From contig JAQZBP010000002.1 of assembly GCA_029237815.1 (NCBI GenBank), positions 206,917 to 270,916 on the forward strand: a stretch of 64,000 bases of DNA. The letters run 5' to 3'. The translations under genes and the position numbers were made by a program. Shown here piece after piece: positions 3,292 to 34,191 of the stretch (positions are counted from its first letter, which is position 1; each line of letters begins with the position of its first letter). Source of the DNA: Moraxellaceae bacterium (GTDB lineage: Bacteria > Pseudomonadota > Gammaproteobacteria > Pseudomonadales > Moraxellaceae). The notes beneath the pieces are model-generated. The model did no database searches. It was not told the origin of the DNA and saw only the letters and a program-made list of their open reading frames with translations.

Positions 3292-3882
3292 ATGCCCACC
3301 CACGCGCCGAACCTTCTTCTGGCCTCATCCTCCCCCGCCAGACGCATGCTGCTGGAAAGGCTAGGCCTGCCCTTCCGGTGTCAAAGTCCTGATGTCGATG
3401 AAACGCCATTGCCCGAGGAGTCCGCCGTGGACCTGGTCAGGCGACTGAGCGAAGCCAAGGCTCGCGCCCTGCAAGCAGCCTTTCCCGACTGCCTGATCAT
3501 TGGTTCGGACCAGGCCTTGCAACTGGACGGGGGCATTCTGGGAAAGCCCGGCAGGCACGATGCTGCAATGACTCAGCTGAAGCGCCTATCAGGGCGCACC
3601 GCCACCTTCCACACCGGACTTTGCCTTCTCAACGTCCAGGCCAACAGACTTCACCTGCTAACCGAGCCCTTCACGGTCCACTTCCGCGACCTCGATAAAG
3701 CCACCATAGAGCGCTACCTGGCGGCAGAAGAACCCTACGGCTGCGCCGGCAGCTTTAAAGCAGAGGGACTGGGAATTAGCCTTTTCAGGAGGTTTGAGGG
3801 AAGGGACCCAAGCAGTCTGATAGGGCTGCCGCTCATGGCCCTTGTTGACATGCTCCACGCAGAGGGAATCTCCGTTCCCTGA
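3292..3882 (+). CDS. maf: Maf-like nucleoside triphosphate pyrophosphatase (YceF type)
   Basis: 196-aa ORF with LLLASSSPARRMLLERLGLPF and GSDQAL..DG motifs of the Maf family. Divergent from yceD as in enterics and pseudomonads. Confidence 0.85.
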   Translation: MPTHAPNLLLASSSPARRMLLERLGLPFRCQSPDVDETPLPEESAVDLVRRLSEAKARALQAAFPDCLIIGSDQALQLDGGILGKPGRHDAAMTQLKRLSGRTATFHTGLCLLNVQANRLHLLTEPFTVHFRDLDKATIERYLAAEEPYGCAGSFKAEGLGISLFRRFEGRDPSSLIGLPLMALVDMLHAEGISVP

Positions 3883-29083: not shown

Positions 29084-30682
29084 TCACAGAGCGGTGACGG
29101 CGCCCCAGTCCAGGCCGAAGCGCGCCAGGTACTTGCGCAGGCGGTCAGTATCGTTGGGCGTGCTGCGCCTCTCTCGGCTGCGCGCAAACAGGCGGCGTCC
29201 GGCCTCGGCCAGGCTCCCGCATTCGCGACAAACTTCCACCACATGCTCGAGCTGGACACGATCGAAGTCGTCAAGCGTTGCCAGCAGCGCCACCGGCAAG
29301 ACGGCGCTAGTTCCCTCTCCCGTCGTCGCCTCGCCCGAAGGCCGCTCCCAGGCCATGCGCAGACGCTGGATCTCGCGTTCCACCGTGGCGGTGGTGATGC
29401 GCCCACTGGCGGCCAGCGCCGCCATTCGCCGCACCGACGCATAAAGATCTCGAAAGTTGCCGTGCCAGGGTGCGGCCGCCGACAACGCAAAGCCCAGGTA
29501 ATGCGCCTTCGCCTCCCGGTTGAAGCGCACCAGCCGCCCCTCGCGCTCGGCGAAACGCTCCAGCTCGTAGTCGACGTTGGGCTCGATATCCTCCCGCCGA
29601 CGCGCGAGCCCGGGCAGATGGAAGGTCCAGACATTGAGGCGGGCAAACAAATCCTCGCGAAAGCGGCCCCGCGCCACGTCCACACGCAGGTCGCGGTTGG
29701 TGCCGGCGATGAGCTGGAACTCCGAACGCACGTCACGATCAGCGCCCATCGGCAGGAAGGTCTTTTCCTCCAGCGCCTTGAGCAGCATGGCCTGCTCGTC
29801 GAGGCCGAGCTCGCCGATCTCGTCGAGGAAGAGTTGGCCGCCGTCGGCACGCTTGAGCAGGCCCTCGCGCGCGCTGGCTGCACCGGTGAAAGCTCCCTTC
29901 GCATGACCGAATAGCGTGCTCATGGCGGTATCCCCACGCAGCGTGGCGCAGTTCACTTCAACGAAGTCGCCACGGAACTGGTGACGCTGGCGCTTCAGCT
30001 CGTAAAGACGCCGCGCCAGATGCGATTTGCCGGCGCCAGTGGGGCCGATCAGCAGCAGCGGTTCGCGCGAGCCGATGGCCACCTGTTCCATCTCGTCGAT
30101 CATGGCGTTGAAGGCGGCGTTACGCGTGGCGATGCCTGCCTTAAGATGACTGACCGCGTCCTCTTTCTCGCGCGCAAAGCGCTCGGCCAAGCGATCATAG
30201 CGGGAGAGGTCGAGGTCGATGACGGTGCAGCTGCCCCCCGGCCCCTCTCCGTCACGTGGCGGCGAAGTCTGCAGTATGCGCGCGGGCAGGTAACGGCTCT
30301 CGGTCAGCAGGAACCAACAGATCTGCGCCACATGCGTGCCGGTGGTGAGGTGAACCAGGTAGTCCTCCTCTTGCGTGCGGAAGGGATAGGCGCGCACGAA
30401 GTCGTGCAGCTTGGCGTAGACCTCCTCGAAGTCCCAGGGATCGCGGAAGTACATGTCGTGAACCACCAGCTCGATCGTGGGCGCGATTTCGGCGATATCC
30501 GCCTGCACCTGGGCCAGCAAGCGCGAGCTGCGGCGACGGTCGCAGAGCAGCTCGATGCGGTCGACGCCGAGCGCGGCCTGATGGGCGATGCCGACCGTGG
30601 GCCGCCAGTGCTTCTTGCGCTCCTCACCCTTGCCGCGGGCGTCGAGCTGGGTGCCGAGGAAGCCAATGACGACAGTTTTCAT
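29084..30682 (-). CDS. rtcR: sigma54-dependent transcriptional activator RtcR (CARF-AAA+-HTH)
   Basis: N-terminal 180 aa align closely with the E. coli RtcR CARF domain (VIGFLGT..WRPT..DRIELL..HDMYFRDPWDFEEVYAKLHDF..EEDYLVHLTTGTHVAQICWFLL..RYLPARILQTSPP). It is followed by the AAA+ sigma54-interaction domain (GPTGAGKS, GAFTGA) and a C-terminal HTH. Confidence 0.9.
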   Translation of the reverse strand: MKTVVIGFLGTQLDARGKGEERKKHWRPTVGIAHQAALGVDRIELLCDRRRSSRLLAQVQADIAEIAPTIELVVHDMYFRDPWDFEEVYAKLHDFVRAYPFRTQEEDYLVHLTTGTHVAQICWFLLTESRYLPARILQTSPPRDGEGPGGSCTVIDLDLSRYDRLAERFAREKEDAVSHLKAGIATRNAAFNAMIDEMEQVAIGSREPLLLIGPTGAGKSHLARRLYELKRQRHQFRGDFVEVNCATLRGDTAMSTLFGHAKGAFTGAASAREGLLKRADGGQLFLDEIGELGLDEQAMLLKALEEKTFLPMGADRDVRSEFQLIAGTNRDLRVDVARGRFREDLFARLNVWTFHLPGLARRREDIEPNVDYELERFAEREGRLVRFNREAKAHYLGFALSAAAPWHGNFRDLYASVRRMAALAASGRITTATVEREIQRLRMAWERPSGEATTGEGTSAVLPVALLATLDDFDRVQLEHVVEVCRECGSLAEAGRRLFARSRERRSTPNDTDRLRKYLARFGLDWGAVTAL

Positions 30683-30690
30683 TCTATCTA

Positions 30691-30742
30691 TCCGTATAGC
30701 CTTCCTAGCTTTATAGCGCTTTTTATATGCTTCCGTACAGCC
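30691..30742. promoter_or_regulatory. direct repeats TCCGTATAGCC / TCCGTACAGCC; candidate RtcR upstream activator sites
   Basis: Two 11-mers 41 bp apart, located 100-140 bp upstream of the sigma54 -24 element and next to the rtcR start. Confidence 0.3.
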
Positions 30743-30772
30743 CCACCCCGCGGAATCAAGGGCGACTTAAAA

Positions 30773-30785
30773 TAATTTATTGATA
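30773..30785. promoter_or_regulatory. putative IHF site (TATCAATAAATTA on the reverse strand)
   Basis: Matches WATCAANNNNTTR within an AT-rich stretch between the repeats and the sigma54 promoter. Confidence 0.3.
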
Positions 30786-30830
30786 TTTTTCATTAGCTTG
30801 CCTCTGAACACCTCCTTCTTTCGCCAATGC

Positions 30831-30846
30831 TGGCACGCCCCTCGCT
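30831..30846 (+). promoter_or_regulatory. sigma54 (-24/-12) promoter of the tRNA-mimic/SPFH/rtcB operon
   Basis: TGGCACGccccTcGCT against the consensus TGGCACGnnnnTTGCW, with correct GG-N10-GC spacing. Divergent from rtcR. Confidence 0.6.
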
Positions 30847-30984
30847 ATATCCCCCTCGCCACACCGCACGGCTCCTGAGACAGGCGTCCCACGCCGTGGC
30901 GCACTGCCCTGTCCCCCGGTAGGTCCGGACATGGGGCGGGTGCGTACCGGGCCGGGTGGAACGGCAATGCCCTGTTAAGGCATC

Positions 30985-31054
30985 GGGTTTGTAGCTCAGG
31001 GGTAGAGCAGCGGCTTCGGCCGTGGACGCGGGTTCGAGTCCCGCCAGACCACCA
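30985..31054 (+). ncRNA. tRNA-like RNA 1: cloverleaf whose anticodon arm is replaced by a cUUCGg tetraloop hairpin; encoded 3' CCA
   Basis: Acceptor GGTTTG/CAGACC (6 bp), U8A9, D-arm GCTC-AGGGGTA-GAGC, hairpin GCGGC-TTCG-GCCGT, variable GGAC, T-arm GCGGG-TTCGAGT-CCCGC, then ACCA. Confidence 0.6.
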
Positions 31055-31126
31055 CTGTTGTAGCTCAGTCGGGTAGAGCACCGATCTAAACCGTCGGCTG
31101 TCGCGGGTTCGATTCCCGCCAACACC
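31055..31126 (+). ncRNA. tRNA-like RNA 2: pseudo-tRNA with a 7-nt anticodon loop CUAAACC (anticodon AAA, C37), imperfect acceptor stem, no encoded CCA
   Basis: Acceptor TGTTG/CAACA (5 bp plus a C:C mismatch), D-arm GCTC-AGTCGGGTA-GAGC, anticodon stem CCGAT/GTCGG, variable CTGTC, T-arm GCGGG-TTCGATT-CCCGC. It starts 1 nt after RNA 1. Confidence 0.55.
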
Positions 31127-31394
31127 GCGTTAACCACGCGATCTGAAAAACCGAGAAGGCGATGCCGTGTCGCCGGTCCGGGACGAGGTGGAGGCCAAGC
31201 CAGAATGGCTGGCCAATGCCCCGCCCCGGGCCACCCGGCCAGAGGCCGGCCGACACGTCGCCGCGGGACCGGCGCACCGGAGGCGATTGCTCCGGTCGCC
31301 CGCCCCGCGGCCACCCGAGGCCCCCGCTGTCCGGGGGCGGCACGGCAAAGCCCGATCACTTGATGACAATGAAGAACAGCAAGGAAGAAAGAAG

Positions 31395-32606
31395 ATGAAC
31401 ACGAAGACCAACACCCGAATGAATTCCCTGGACCCGCGTTGCAAGACCGTCCTCGGCGCTTGGAAGACCTGGCGCGTCGAGGCCGACGAGCGCGGCCTGC
31501 TGTACCGCTACGACACCCCCGTCGCCGTGCTGCGCGCCGGCGAGCACCGCTTCTTCGATCCGCTCGGCAAGCTGCGCGCGGAAGTCTCGACGCTGAGCCA
31601 GCCGCTGTTCCGCTCCGCCCAGGAAGACTGGCTGCGCGCGGAACGCCGCGAATGGCTGGAGACCGAGTGGCAGGCGGTGGAGACCGGCGCCGATGAGCTG
31701 GCCTGGGTGCGCTACAACGGCAAGCTTGCCGACGTGCTGCCGCCCCGGACCCGCGCGCTGTACTGGCGCGGCTTCGTGGAGGTGAGCGTGGAGCGCGTGG
31801 ATCTTTCAGCGACGCTCGAGGTGGCCCCGGCGCTGCTGCGCGAGCTCGCCAACACGAGCTTCGTGGGCGCGCACGCCTCACCGGCCCAGGTCGTGATGCA
31901 GGTGGAAGTGCCGTCTTATGCGGTGGGCGTACTGACCGTCGACGACGGCGAAGCGCGCCTGCTGACACCGGGCCGCTACGGGTTCTACCGCACCGGTCGC
32001 AACATCGGCTTCCAGACTGCGGACACGCGCGAGCAGGCGCTGGAAATCAGCGGCCAGGAAATCCTGACCGCGGACAAGGTGGCGCTGCGCGTGACCGTGG
32101 GCGTGAGCTGGAAGGTGGCGGACGTGCTGGCCTGCCAGCGCGAACTGGCCAAGCCGGGCGAGCACCTGTACCGCGAGGTGCAGTTCGCGCTGCGCCAGGT
32201 GGTGGGTACGCGCTCGCTGGACACGCTGCTGGAAGACAAGACCGCGCTGGACCGCGAGGTGCTGGAGCTGGTGAAGCCCCGGCTGGAGGGCCAGGGCCTG
32301 GCCGTTGTGCGGGTGGGGGTGAAGGACATCATCCTGCCCGGCGACATGAAGGCCATCCTGACCCGGGTGGTGGAGGCCGAGAAGGCCGCTCTGGCGAACG
32401 TGATCCGTCGCCGTGAGGAAACCTCTGCGACCCGCTCGCTGCTGAACACCGCCAAGGTCATGGAGGACAACCCGGTGGCGCTGCGCCTGAAGGAGCTGGA
32501 AACGCTGGAACGCATCACCGACAAGATCGGCAACATCTCGGTCTACGGTGGCCTGGAAGGCGTGCTGCAGGATTTGGTGAAACTGGCACCGGCGAGCAAG
32601 CAATGA
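31395..32606 (+). CDS. SPFH/band-7 (stomatin/prohibitin-like) domain protein with a novel ~180-aa N-terminal domain, no TM segment
   Basis: C-terminal half has the SPFH core (..VRVGVKDIILPGDMKAILTRVVEAEKAALANVIRRREETSATRSLLNTAKVMEDNPVALRLKELETLERI..). Start at the ATG at 31395 preceded by AAGGAAGAAAGAAG. The upstream in-frame stretch of the 479-aa listed ORF is low complexity. Confidence 0.8.
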   Translation: MNTKTNTRMNSLDPRCKTVLGAWKTWRVEADERGLLYRYDTPVAVLRAGEHRFFDPLGKLRAEVSTLSQPLFRSAQEDWLRAERREWLETEWQAVETGADELAWVRYNGKLADVLPPRTRALYWRGFVEVSVERVDLSATLEVAPALLRELANTSFVGAHASPAQVVMQVEVPSYAVGVLTVDDGEARLLTPGRYGFYRTGRNIGFQTADTREQALEISGQEILTADKVALRVTVGVSWKVADVLACQRELAKPGEHLYREVQFALRQVVGTRSLDTLLEDKTALDREVLELVKPRLEGQGLAVVRVGVKDIILPGDMKAILTRVVEAEKAALANVIRRREETSATRSLLNTAKVMEDNPVALRLKELETLERITDKIGNISVYGGLEGVLQDLVKLAPASKQ

Positions 32607-32685: not shown

Positions 32686-32900
32686 CAGGGCTGAGCGCGA
32701 AATGGCGAGCGGCCGGCAAAAGTGTTTACGTAGCCGGTGAAGGGTAAAACCGACGGCATTGGCGGCAGCCGGTAATTTGAGGATGCAGCCCCGGGGTCCG
32801 AGCAAGGTTCCGAGGGTGTCGCGCGTTTAAAGGACTGCCGCACGCGGGAGTAATGCCCCGTGGCTGCCTATTGCGGGTTCGAGTCCCGCCAGCCCTGCCA
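32686..32900 (+). ncRNA. roughly 215-nt structured RNA with an 8-bp terminal stem, a T-arm identical to tRNA-like RNA 1, and a 3' CCA (Y-RNA-like)
   Basis: 5' CAGGGCTG pairs with 3' CAGCCCTG-CCA. The T-arm GCGGG-TTCGAGT-CCCGC precedes the 3' strand. An inner stem GCGCGA/TCGCGC and several GC-rich hairpins lie between. The RNA sits in the 358-bp gap between the SPFH gene and rtcB. Confidence 0.45.
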
Positions 32901-32964: not shown

Positions 32965-34191
32965 ATGGACCATACGCATGAAATCTGGCAGCCGGCGCCG
33001 CAAAGCCGGCCCATCAAGATGTGGACCTCGGGCGTGCCCGTGGAAGCCGAGGCCCGCGCCCAGCTTGCCAACATCGCGCAGCTGCCCTTCGTATTCCGGC
33101 ACGTGGCGGTGATGCCCGACGTGCACCTGGGCAAGGGCGCGACCGTAGGCTCGGTGATCCCCACCAAGGGCGCCATCATCCCTGCCGCCGTGGGGGTGGA
33201 CATCGGCTGCGGGATGATCGCCGCGCTCACCTCGCTCACGGCCAAGGACCTGCCGGACAACCTGCAGGGCCTGCGCGCCGCCATCGAGCGCGCCGTGCCG
33301 CATGGCCGCAGCGTGGGCCGCGGCAAGCGCGACGAAGGAAGCTGGAGCAATCCGCCCGCCGAGGCGCTGGCGGCCTGGTCGACCCTGGCCGACGGCTTCA
33401 GGGCCATCACGGAAAAGCATCCGCGCCTGAAGAACACCAACAACGTGCAGCACCTGGGAACGCTGGGGACCGGCAACCACTTCATCGAGATCTGCCTGGA
33501 CGAGGCCGACCGCGTCTGGTTCATGCTGCATTCGGGGTCGCGCGGGGTGGGCAATGCCATCGGGACCCACTTCATCGAGCTGGCCAAGGCGGACATGCGC
33601 CGCCACTTCATCAACCTGCCCGACCAGGACCTCGCCTACCTGCCGGAAGGGACTCAGCACTTCGAGGACTACTGGCAGGCGGTGGACTGGGCGCAGCGCT
33701 TCGCCATGAAGAACCGCGAGGTGATGATGGGAGCAGTGGTACGCGCCGTCGGCGCCGCGCTCGGGAAGCCGTTCTCGGCAACGCAGGAGGGGGTGAACTG
33801 CCACCACAACTACGTGTCGCGCGAGCGCCACTTCGGCGAGGACGTGCTGGTGACACGCAAGGGCGCGGTGAGCGCGAAGGAAGGCGAGCTCGGGATCATT
33901 CCGGGATCCATGGGCGCCCGCTCCTACATCGTGCGCGGCAAGGGCAACCCGGAGTCGTTCTGCTCCTGCAGCCACGGCGCGGGGCGCGTCATGAGCCGCA
34001 CCAAGGCCAAGGCGCAGTTCACGCTGGAGGACCACCGCCGCATGACCGCGCACGTGGAATGCCGCAAGGACGCGGCGGTGATCGACGAGACCCCGGCGGC
34101 CTACAAGGACATCGAGGCCGTGATCGCCGCCCAGGCCGATCTGGTCGAGGTGGTGCATACCTTGCGGCAGGTGGTGTGCGTGAAAGGCTGA
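32965..34191 (+). CDS. rtcB: RNA-splicing ligase RtcB (3'-phosphate/5'-hydroxy nucleic acid ligase)
   Basis: 408-aa ORF with KMWTSGVPVEAEA, MPDVHLGKG, GTGNHF, NCHHNY and CSHGAGR, all hallmark RtcB motifs. Confidence 0.95.
   Translation: MDHTHEIWQPAPQSRPIKMWTSGVPVEAEARAQLANIAQLPFVFRHVAVMPDVHLGKGATVGSVIPTKGAIIPAAVGVDIGCGMIAALTSLTAKDLPDNLQGLRAAIERAVPHGRSVGRGKRDEGSWSNPPAEALAAWSTLADGFRAITEKHPRLKNTNNVQHLGTLGTGNHFIEICLDEADRVWFMLHSGSRGVGNAIGTHFIELAKADMRRHFINLPDQDLAYLPEGTQHFEDYWQAVDWAQRFAMKNREVMMGAVVRAVGAALGKPFSATQEGVNCHHNYVSRERHFGEDVLVTRKGAVSAKEGELGIIPGSMGARSYIVRGKGNPESFCSCSHGAGRVMSRTKAKAQFTLEDHRRMTAHVECRKDAAVIDETPAAYKDIEAVIAAQADLVEVVHTLRQVVCVKG

Follow-up and report, generated by a model that had tools for sequence, protein, structure and literature searches.

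A conserved, non-decoding tRNA-like RNA with a hypervariable anticodon-like loop beside Band-7 and RtcB genes in a Moraxellaceae bacterium

In certain bacteria the gene for the RNA ligase RtcB adjoins those for a Band-7 protein and a predicted non-coding RNA, and a preprint (bioRxiv 10.1101/312249, citing Burroughs and Aravind 2016) presents this RNA, b7a-tRNA, as the proposed cognate RNA of the Band-7 protein in the way that YrlA is the cognate RNA of Ro60, adding that it is possibly redundant with the Y RNA YrlA and that as of 2018 it had not been validated experimentally. Our literature search for later work on b7a-tRNA gave only one citing preprint. The subject of this report is such an RNA in a stretch of 64,000 nucleotides (hereafter the window) from a Moraxellaceae bacterium (contig JAQZBP010000002.1, positions 206,917 to 270,916), in which two tRNA-like RNAs, RNA 1 and RNA 2, lie in tandem 5' of genes for a Band-7/SPFH protein and RtcB. 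RNA 2, at 31054-31128 on the forward strand, is a real, conserved, Band-7-linked tRNA body that is not built for decoding. It belongs to the b7a-tRNA class, predicted in 2016 and defined here as in the citing preprint, and nothing that we found contradicts the assignment: it has a cloverleaf that tRNA finders detect and call, a Band-7/SPFH neighbour on the same strand, a place in an RtcB neighbourhood, and homology to other tRNA-like RNAs linked to Band-7 genes. The hypervariability of its loop and the modular nature of the leader in which it lies may go beyond the published description of the class, which the initial annotation of this DNA had not recognised.

Of the described systems, YrlA (RF02553; Chen et al. 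2014, PMC4201824) offers several points of likeness, as it also occurs in RtcR-controlled rtcB operons, has T-arm and D-arm sequences that are nearly the same (GCGGGUUCGAnnCCCGC; GUAGCUCA...GGUAGAGC), and is a non-decoding tRNA mimic thought to partner a scaffold protein. In YrlA, however, the tRNA-like domain is circularly permuted and sits on a stem that binds Ro60, and the gene accompanies rsr (Ro60), whereas the window has two complete, unpermuted cloverleaves. The YrlA model did match positions 31007-31104, with non-canonical outer pairs and at 39.3 bits where the gathering score is 69, and no rsr, Ro60 or TROVE gene was found among the called genes around the locus; membership of the YrlA family was rejected because the match is below threshold, is an artefact that arises only by bridging RNA 1 and RNA 2, and is accompanied by no Ro60 gene among the called neighbours. 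A second comparison is with the vault RNAs, small structured non-coding RNAs that are paired with the major vault protein and are not tRNA-shaped. Both the Band-7 protein and the cage-forming major vault protein combine N-terminal beta structure with an SPFH-like domain and a long helix, and both are paired with an RNA, but for the bacterial Band-7 protein assembly and RNA binding are putative. A third comparison is with the spare tRNAs of phages and mobile elements, which come in arrays, include anticodon-loop variants that escape anticodon nucleases, and are chargeable, with full acceptor stems and meaningful anticodons. There too tRNA-shaped genes are tied to conflict over tRNA cleavage and the changes are concentrated in the anticodon loop, and arrays of real tRNA genes adjoin many of the Band-7 loci that have no RtcR; RNA 2 differs from such tRNAs in having neither a full acceptor stem nor a meaningful anticodon.

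RNA 2 was called by ARAGORN as tRNA-Phe(aaa), with a score of 112.6, and by the Rfam tRNA model RF00005 at 31054-31127, with 47.8 bits (E = 4e-7 for the 64-kb window; gathering score 29), the genuine tRNA-Asn of the window (35645) scoring 69.1 bits. As the initial annotation had it, this is a tandem tRNA-like RNA that follows RNA 1 directly (RNA 1 ends at 31053/4, with no spacer), and the observation is confirmed. The acceptor stem has five base pairs, 31056-31060 with 31120-31124 (uguug/caaca), beyond which lie A:C and C:C mismatches; it is followed by U8 and A9 and by a canonical D arm, GCUC-AGUCGGGUA-GAGC. The anticodon stem, CCGAU/GUCGG, is of five pairs with one U-G pair among them, and carries at 31086-31092 the 7-nt loop CUAAACC, with U33, A34-A35-A36, C37 and C38. 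The variable loop is CUGUC and the T arm (31103-31119) is GCGGG-UUCGAUU-CCCGC, likewise canonical and different from that of RNA 1 at a single loop base; these readings of the D and T arms and of the anticodon arm agree with those made earlier. All of the elbow nucleotides that give a tRNA its L-shape are in place (U8, A14, G15-C48, G18-G19, U54-U55-C56 and A58), and they do not vary within the family. The bases at positions 34 and 73 are A and G, and CCA is not encoded in the gene, though it could be added after transcription.

When folded as a single sequence, RNA 2 did not return the cloverleaf as its minimum-energy structure (z = -0.16, no better than shuffles), and it is because lone-sequence folding gives the cloverleaf no support that covariation was used as the structural evidence. 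Eighty loci with homologues of the Band-7 protein (47-54% identity), from Burkholderiales, Pseudomonas, Thiotrichales and other beta- and gammaproteobacteria, were collected, and copies of the RNA were sought upstream with ARAGORN and a covariance model. The promoter-distal copies (slot B) were aligned at full length, RNA 2 and 44 others, and in this alignment the D stem, U8, A14, G18-G19 and the T loop are invariant and the T arm is nearly so. Of the cells in the alignment that the cloverleaf pairs, 92.1% were paired, versus 73.4% in shuffles, and the covariation score was 0.498 versus 0.140, a value that none of 500 shuffles reached; in a control in which the partners were slid by 1-3 columns, 34-44% of cells were paired. 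Both the acceptor and the anticodon stems covary. In the acceptor, pairs 4-7 do so as uugga/uccaa, uucga/ucgaa, uuccu/aggaa and, in the window, uguug/caaca, while pair 1:72 is unpaired in 33 of the 45 orthologues and pair 2:71 in 25, and a stem whose outer pairs are mostly open while its inner pairs covary is a conserved design and not decay. Thus, of what the initial annotation had said of the acceptor, the five pairs, the C:C mismatch and the missing CCA stand, but the word defective does not, the shortness being conserved across the family. Selection keeps the tRNA body (U8, A14, G15-C48, G18-G19, D stem and T arm) together with a shortened acceptor of 4-6 bp, and it leaves the anticodon loop free to change, or drives it to change.

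The loop is the one part of RNA 2 that does not hold still. Among the 45 slot B orthologues, 36 have a loop of 7 nt, with 21 different triplets between them, and the other nine have loops of 5, 6 or 8 nt, UUCG-type caps included. The frame of the 7-nt loops is retained in many (C32 in 32/36, U33 in 27/36, A37 in 25/36 and A38 in 28/36); that of the window retains C32 and U33 but has C37 and C38. The closest relative, with 95% identity in Band-7, has a 6-nt loop, CUAACC, the relative at 77% has UCGCAAU, and more distant ones have UUAUUAA, UGGUUAA and others. The initial annotation had read the RNA as tRNA-Phe-like; with a loop that differs even between close relatives, the AAA triplet is meaningless and the name is not supported. 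In 22 pairs of RNAs whose bodies were at most 8% different, the pooled divergence was 4.6% in the body, 5.5% in the anticodon stem and 58% in the loop. Nine Pseudomonas loci allowed the comparison to be set against the adjacent Band-7 gene, in which the mean pairwise divergence at four-fold degenerate sites was 0.159: the corresponding value was 0.094 for the rest of the ~600-nt leader, 0.49 for its three variable tips together and 0.54 for the slot B loop, which is ~3.4 times the synonymous rate, an excess over neutrality that is suggestive rather than proven since the lineages are few and not independent and constraint at four-fold sites (codon bias) could inflate it. Loop alleles are common to several loci in a mosaic pattern. 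No complementarity among the three variable loops of one locus was seen by eye, no computation having been made.

Linkage to Band-7 was consistent. In at least 75 of the 80 loci one or two tRNA-like genes lie 230-500 nt 5' of the Band-7 gene, always on its strand, and they are linked to it even where RtcB is upstream, distant or absent. A model, R1, built from 45 of the Band-7-linked RNAs, scores RNA 2 at 73.5 bits, a value that is partly by construction as RNA 2 is one of the 45; R1 was rejected as a family-specific detector, because ordinary tRNAs also match it (the tRNA-Asn of the window at 69 bits), and specificity was therefore tested through the truncation of the acceptor and the linkage to Band-7. 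For this a reciprocal scan was made from the RNA side, with a pattern that combined the D arm, the variable loop and the T arm and that matched 25 metagenome loci. Nineteen of the 25 had an acceptor of 6-7 bp and were ordinary tRNAs, mostly tRNA-Lys(UUU), with Band-7 nearby in none of the 19. The acceptor was truncated in the other six; in five of these a homologue of Band-7 is encoded on the same strand, 0.3-0.8 kb downstream, and in the sixth the contig ends 996 nt downstream. The initial annotation had anticipated a pseudogene call or a low score from tRNA finders, and had taken a normal call, together with occurrence elsewhere as a standard tRNA gene, as evidence against its view; the finders do accept RNA 2, above threshold, whereas the truncated-acceptor form was not seen as a standard tRNA away from Band-7.

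The loci have two architectures, the first of which, found in the window, in Pseudomonas and in Acidovorax, runs RtcR, promoter, leader, slot A, slot B, Band-7, RtcB, while the second has no RtcR and has arrays of 5-15 ordinary-looking tRNA genes upstream. These arrays, with ordinary anticodons and on the same strand, were seen in about 22 of the 80 Band-7 loci, all of them without RtcR, at 0.3-3 kb 5' of Band-7 (loci L005, L008, L009, L014-L016, L018, L020, L023, L025, L030, L032, L044, L049, L062, L066, L075, L077 and L080 among them). Those of their genes whose sequence was read encode CCA, RtcB is sometimes upstream of the array, and the arrays look like a spare tRNA set attached to the repair module. 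A divergent Band-7-linked subgroup from metagenome contigs (L092, L099, L104, L107 and L115), with Band-7 ~0.7 kb downstream, has by a simple in-register count only two contiguous acceptor pairs (AUGAUUG / CGUCAAA). Escherichia coli has an island of a slipin (a Band-7 protein, 46% identity) and an RlaP nucleotidyltransferase, between a gene with a DUF3811 domain and lysC, which is present in 1629 of 5426 complete E. coli genomes (for example at 3681-5919 of L091, CP061233.1). The leader of this island resembles that of the window, and its promoter is a close variant.

The neighbourhood of RNA 2 in the window is that of an rtc RNA-repair locus, as the initial annotation had concluded and as Pfam confirms for RtcR and RtcB. 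The gene for RtcR, a sigma-54 activator with an N-terminal RtcR/CARF-type domain, lies divergently at 29084-30682 on the reverse strand (Pfam RtcR, 2.8e-77; Sigma54_activat, 2.8e-48), and all else is on the forward strand: a sigma-54 type promoter at 30831-30846 (TGGCAC-N5-TCGCT, GG-N10-GC), the leader, RNA 1, RNA 2, the Band-7/SPFH protein (slipin, 403 aa) at 31395-32606, which starts 266 nt 3' of RNA 2, and RtcB at 32965-34191 (Pfam RtcB, 8.5e-134). The contig, from a metagenome, is 1.37 Mb long, and the called neighbours were RtcR, Band-7, RtcB, an aminotransferase, a RIO1 kinase and a DEAD-box helicase. The promoter 16-mer, TGGCACGCCCCTCGCT, recurs without change and at the same position, between RtcR and the tRNA-like pair, in nine Pseudomonas loci, closely similar sequences occur in most of the remaining RtcR-carrying loci, and transcription is expected to start near 30857. 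No sigma-70 promoter and no intrinsic terminator were found within 30000-32000, and we infer that, most simply, an RtcR-dependent transcript has the tRNA-like pair as its first structured elements. RNA 1 (slot A), at 30985-31054, carries a UUCG tetraloop where the anticodon loop would be and has an acceptor of 6-7 bp, was called tRNA-??? by ARAGORN and tRNA by Rfam (48.2 bits), and has the cloverleaf as its minimum-energy fold. Its 3' end is ACCA/CCA at 31051-31054 (CCA at 31052-31054), exactly at the junction with RNA 2, so that one cut 5' of RNA 2 would leave RNA 1 ending in CCA. The CCA junction is present in the relative with 95% Band-7 identity and not in that with 77%, and orthologues in slot A generally have an acceptor of 6-8 bp, a short variable tip and, often, an encoded CCA abutting slot B.

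The explanation that we favour, with a confidence that sits about midway between doubt and assurance, is that RNA 2 is a tRNA mimic that does not decode, is produced along with the Band-7 scaffold and RtcB, and works with both. Damaged tRNA would activate RtcR, as tRNA fragments do (PMC7790460), and the leader would then be co-transcribed with Band-7 and RtcB. Both modules would be excised by the tRNA-processing machinery, an RNase P cut 5' of RNA 2 also giving RNA 1 its 3' end with CCA, and the resulting L-shaped RNA of ~72 nt would partner the Band-7 protein in trans. As Y RNA is supposed to do with Ro60, it might join the scaffold to enzymes or substrates that recognise tRNA shape, e.g., RtcB and broken tRNAs. 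The YrlA match to the RNA 1 T arm and the RNA 2 D arm, which are modules in common with YrlA, speaks for this partnership. The anticodon loop would be the part exposed to anticodon-loop nucleases, and its rapid turnover most likely reflects conflict with them.

Several points weigh against this explanation. Five of the 80 Band-7 loci have no detectable copy, and the E. coli island keeps a sigma-54 promoter, TGGCACGCTTCTCGCA, and a leader hairpin together with only a T arm, UGGGUUCGAUUCCCA, so a full cloverleaf is not always required. The conservation of the tRNA body could serve RNase P or other processing instead of Band-7 binding, and our literature search found no data on expression, processing or binding. 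A pure scaffold role also leaves two features unexplained, the faster-than-synonymous change of the loop and the retention of an extra hairpin that resembles an anticodon arm. The loops and this hairpin point to contact with anticodon-loop nucleases, whether the RNA is a decoy or bait or is itself a liability forever escaping cleavage.

The hairpins deserve description in their own right. Just 5' of RNA 1, at 30967-30983, is a free-standing hairpin, AUGCC-CUGUUAA-GGCAU, which was detected by folding, resembles an anticodon stem-loop, and is kept in the relatives L086 and L082; its loop is identical to the anticodon loop of the tRNA-Asn of the window. A small hairpin, CGCGU-UAACC-ACGCG (31126-31140; fold z = -2.78), overlaps the 3' end of RNA 2 and sits where other loci have a hairpin directly after slot B. 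The latter, to which the hairpin before RNA 1 is the counterpart in the window, was found in 32 of 51 other loci, with a stem of 4-6 bp and a 7-nt loop in the frame CU-NNN-A(A/C) (C32 in 29/32, U33 in 27/32, A37 in 30/32, and A or C at 38 in 31/32), and among its 25 distinct loops are eight with GUN triplets, where 1 in 16 would be expected. In L038 this hairpin (3725-3741) reads CCGGC-CUAAACC-GCCGG followed by CUGU; its loop is identical to that of RNA 2, as are the bases that follow, and its stem is similar to that of the RNA 2 anticodon arm (31081-31097 in the window). There is a hint here that post-slot-B hairpins and anticodon arms may exchange sequence or have a common origin.

Such features lend themselves to a different reading, in which the leader is sacrificial: between one and three mimics of an anticodon loop, borne by RNA 2, by the small hairpin and in some cases by RNA 1, would be cut in place of real tRNAs by anticodon nucleases, e.g., colicin E5/D-like, PrrC/RloC-like, VapC or CdiA-CT toxins, and resealed by RtcB, and their 5' fragments, with a 2',3'-cyclic phosphate at the end, could act back on RtcR through its CARF domain. 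The initial annotation had favoured a decoy, and part of that case has gained from the comparisons. It is the loop alone that evolves fast, in the close pairs as in the Pseudomonas loci, while the anticodon-loop frame is retained in many loops. At least one 7-nt anticodon-like loop was present in every locus inspected by eye. Colicin E5 targets the tRNAs with GUN anticodons, and the separate post-slot-B hairpin is enriched in that very triplet. The sensing of tRNA fragments by RtcR (PMC7790460) would also suit the feedback. Other observations sit badly with bait. Loops are often replaced by UUCG-type tetraloops (in RNA 1, and in slot B of L013, L029, L034, L046 and L051), and the loop of the window, with its C37 and C38, is unlike any real anticodon loop. 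A decoy has no need of a strictly conserved D/T elbow or of a Band-7 partner. The RNAs lie 3' of the induced promoter, which rules them out as the primary sensor. The margin by which the loop exceeds the synonymous rate, moreover, comes from the few non-independent lineages noted above and may be inflated by codon bias. On balance a role as decoy or bait is a live rival, though as the main function we regard it as somewhat unlikely.

The RNAs are embedded in a longer conserved leader. The segment 30857-30966 is a conserved leader RNA in which a small covarying hairpin is followed by a CCG(G)UG(C/G) motif; its blocks, in an alignment (A2), are common to Pseudomonas, Acidovorax and other loci, with compensatory changes in a partial consensus fold, but between the lineage of the window and Pseudomonas the alignment was poor and, in the search for a leader structure common across lineages, only one or two small hairpins emerged. 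From RNA 2 to the start of Band-7 runs a G+C-rich spacer (31141-31394), partly conserved, lacking an intrinsic terminator and ending with the Shine-Dalgarno sequence AAGGAAG. Apart from tRNA, no Rfam family passed its threshold in the leader, this spacer or the gap between Band-7 and RtcB. Leader and spacer are both conserved across genera and have a CGCCGGUG-like motif in common, and the motif ACGGCAA(U/A)GCCC is repeated at 30954-30973 in the one and 31335-31354 in the other; the 5' region as a whole, ~550 nt, could form a single large structured RNA.

As punctuation in cis, the modules would be signals for processing by RNase P, RNase E or RNase Z, with the cut detaching the leader and setting the stability or translation of the Band-7/RtcB mRNA, and the excised RNAs would be functionless. 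The geometry fits: the modules are always found in the 5' leader and share the strand of Band-7, their distance to its start codon varies rather little, and no terminator lies between them and the coding region. Their tips tolerate any sequence, and E. coli makes do with a T arm and a minihelix-like hairpin. RNase P requires only the acceptor/T-arm minihelix of its substrate. This economy is also the difficulty, for over wide phylogenetic distances there is no change in the D arm, in G18-G19, U8 and A14 or in the variable loop, two full modules and a hairpin exceed what is needed, and the part that has been shortened is the acceptor helix, which RNase P measures. Neutral tips, furthermore, would be expected to change at the synonymous rate and not above it. 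We consider punctuation in cis quite unlikely as the whole explanation.

Relics of integration were considered on account of a third, partial tRNA-like copy at 32868-32898 (forward strand; repeat family D1), consisting of a T arm and a 3' acceptor strand, GCGGGUUCGAGUCCCGCCAG, which is 20/20 identical to RNA 1. It is like the direct repeats that integration into tRNA genes leaves behind, and on this reading RNA 2 would be a tRNA pseudogene in decay, or else what is left of the site at which an element had integrated. The copy lies within a Band-7/RtcB spacer that is unusually long at 358 nt (~100 nt in the relative with 77% Band-7 identity, by gene coordinates), no equivalent was found in that spacer in any of 51 other loci, and it may be a relic of duplication. 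For RNA 2 decay was rejected on covariation, linkage and rates: position, strand and sequence are kept in at least 75 of 80 loci from two proteobacterial classes, stem changes are compensatory, and the body evolves more slowly than synonymous sites. An origin as a pseudogene or attachment site is possible only for the third copy, and for RNA 2 it is very improbable. The chance that RNA 2 is a genuine if unusual tRNA-Phe(AAA) used in translation is close to nil, since the calls by ARAGORN and Rfam above threshold, the U33 and the 7-nt loop are set against a 5-bp acceptor with two terminal mismatches, the absence of an encoded CCA, C37, the lack of the G34 and A73 by which PheRS identifies its tRNA, an unconserved loop that in the closest orthologue has 6 nt and in others is an unrelated triplet or a tetraloop, and the adjacency to Band-7 of every truncated-acceptor copy with enough flank; in denying RNA 2 a role as a working decoder, the initial annotation is supported.

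The AlphaFold model of the Band-7 protein (mean pLDDT 81) shows three parts, namely a beta-rich domain at the N terminus, an SPFH domain and a long helix; no transmembrane segment was predicted. Foldseek matched the model more strongly to stomatin and HflK/C and more weakly, over ~420 aligned columns, to the major vault protein. These are proteins that assemble into large rings or cages, and the Band-7 protein, which is predicted to be soluble, is probably a ring- or cage-forming SPFH protein too. Homology to the major vault protein had moderate support only, and is kept as a resemblance and not as a claim. A search for phage homologues of the Band-7 protein found none.

It is still unclear which RNAs bacterial RtcB repairs and how its partners help, and b7a-tRNA, predicted by comparative genomics and without an Rfam family of its own, has been the least studied of these partners. 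The prediction is now a concrete one: an RNA of two modules with processing junctions, a sigma-54 promoter, and a soluble, putatively cage-forming Band-7 partner. It comes with a measurable oddity, in that the anticodon-like loops outpace synonymous sites while the remaining RNA is frozen, a pattern that suggests a direct role in conflict with toxins that cut anticodons. For annotation, it means that odd-anticodon tRNA calls of the b7a class (AAA, AAG, AUU and others) are not to be counted as decoders. Culturable carriers are found in Pseudomonas (P. nitroreducens and P. citronellolis, for example), Acidovorax, Delftia and natural E. coli strains, and the slipin-RlaP island of E. coli could be a tractable model. 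A tentative joint reading, and in its full form an unlikely one, is that the leader displays fast-evolving anticodon-loop mimics on two tRNA scaffolds and one hairpin, under diversifying selection, as substrates that RtcB would reseal and whose 5' halves would amplify the RtcR response, with the Band-7 protein as a vault-like cage. If true, the locus would be a self-contained circuit that both absorbs and reports the activity of toxins.

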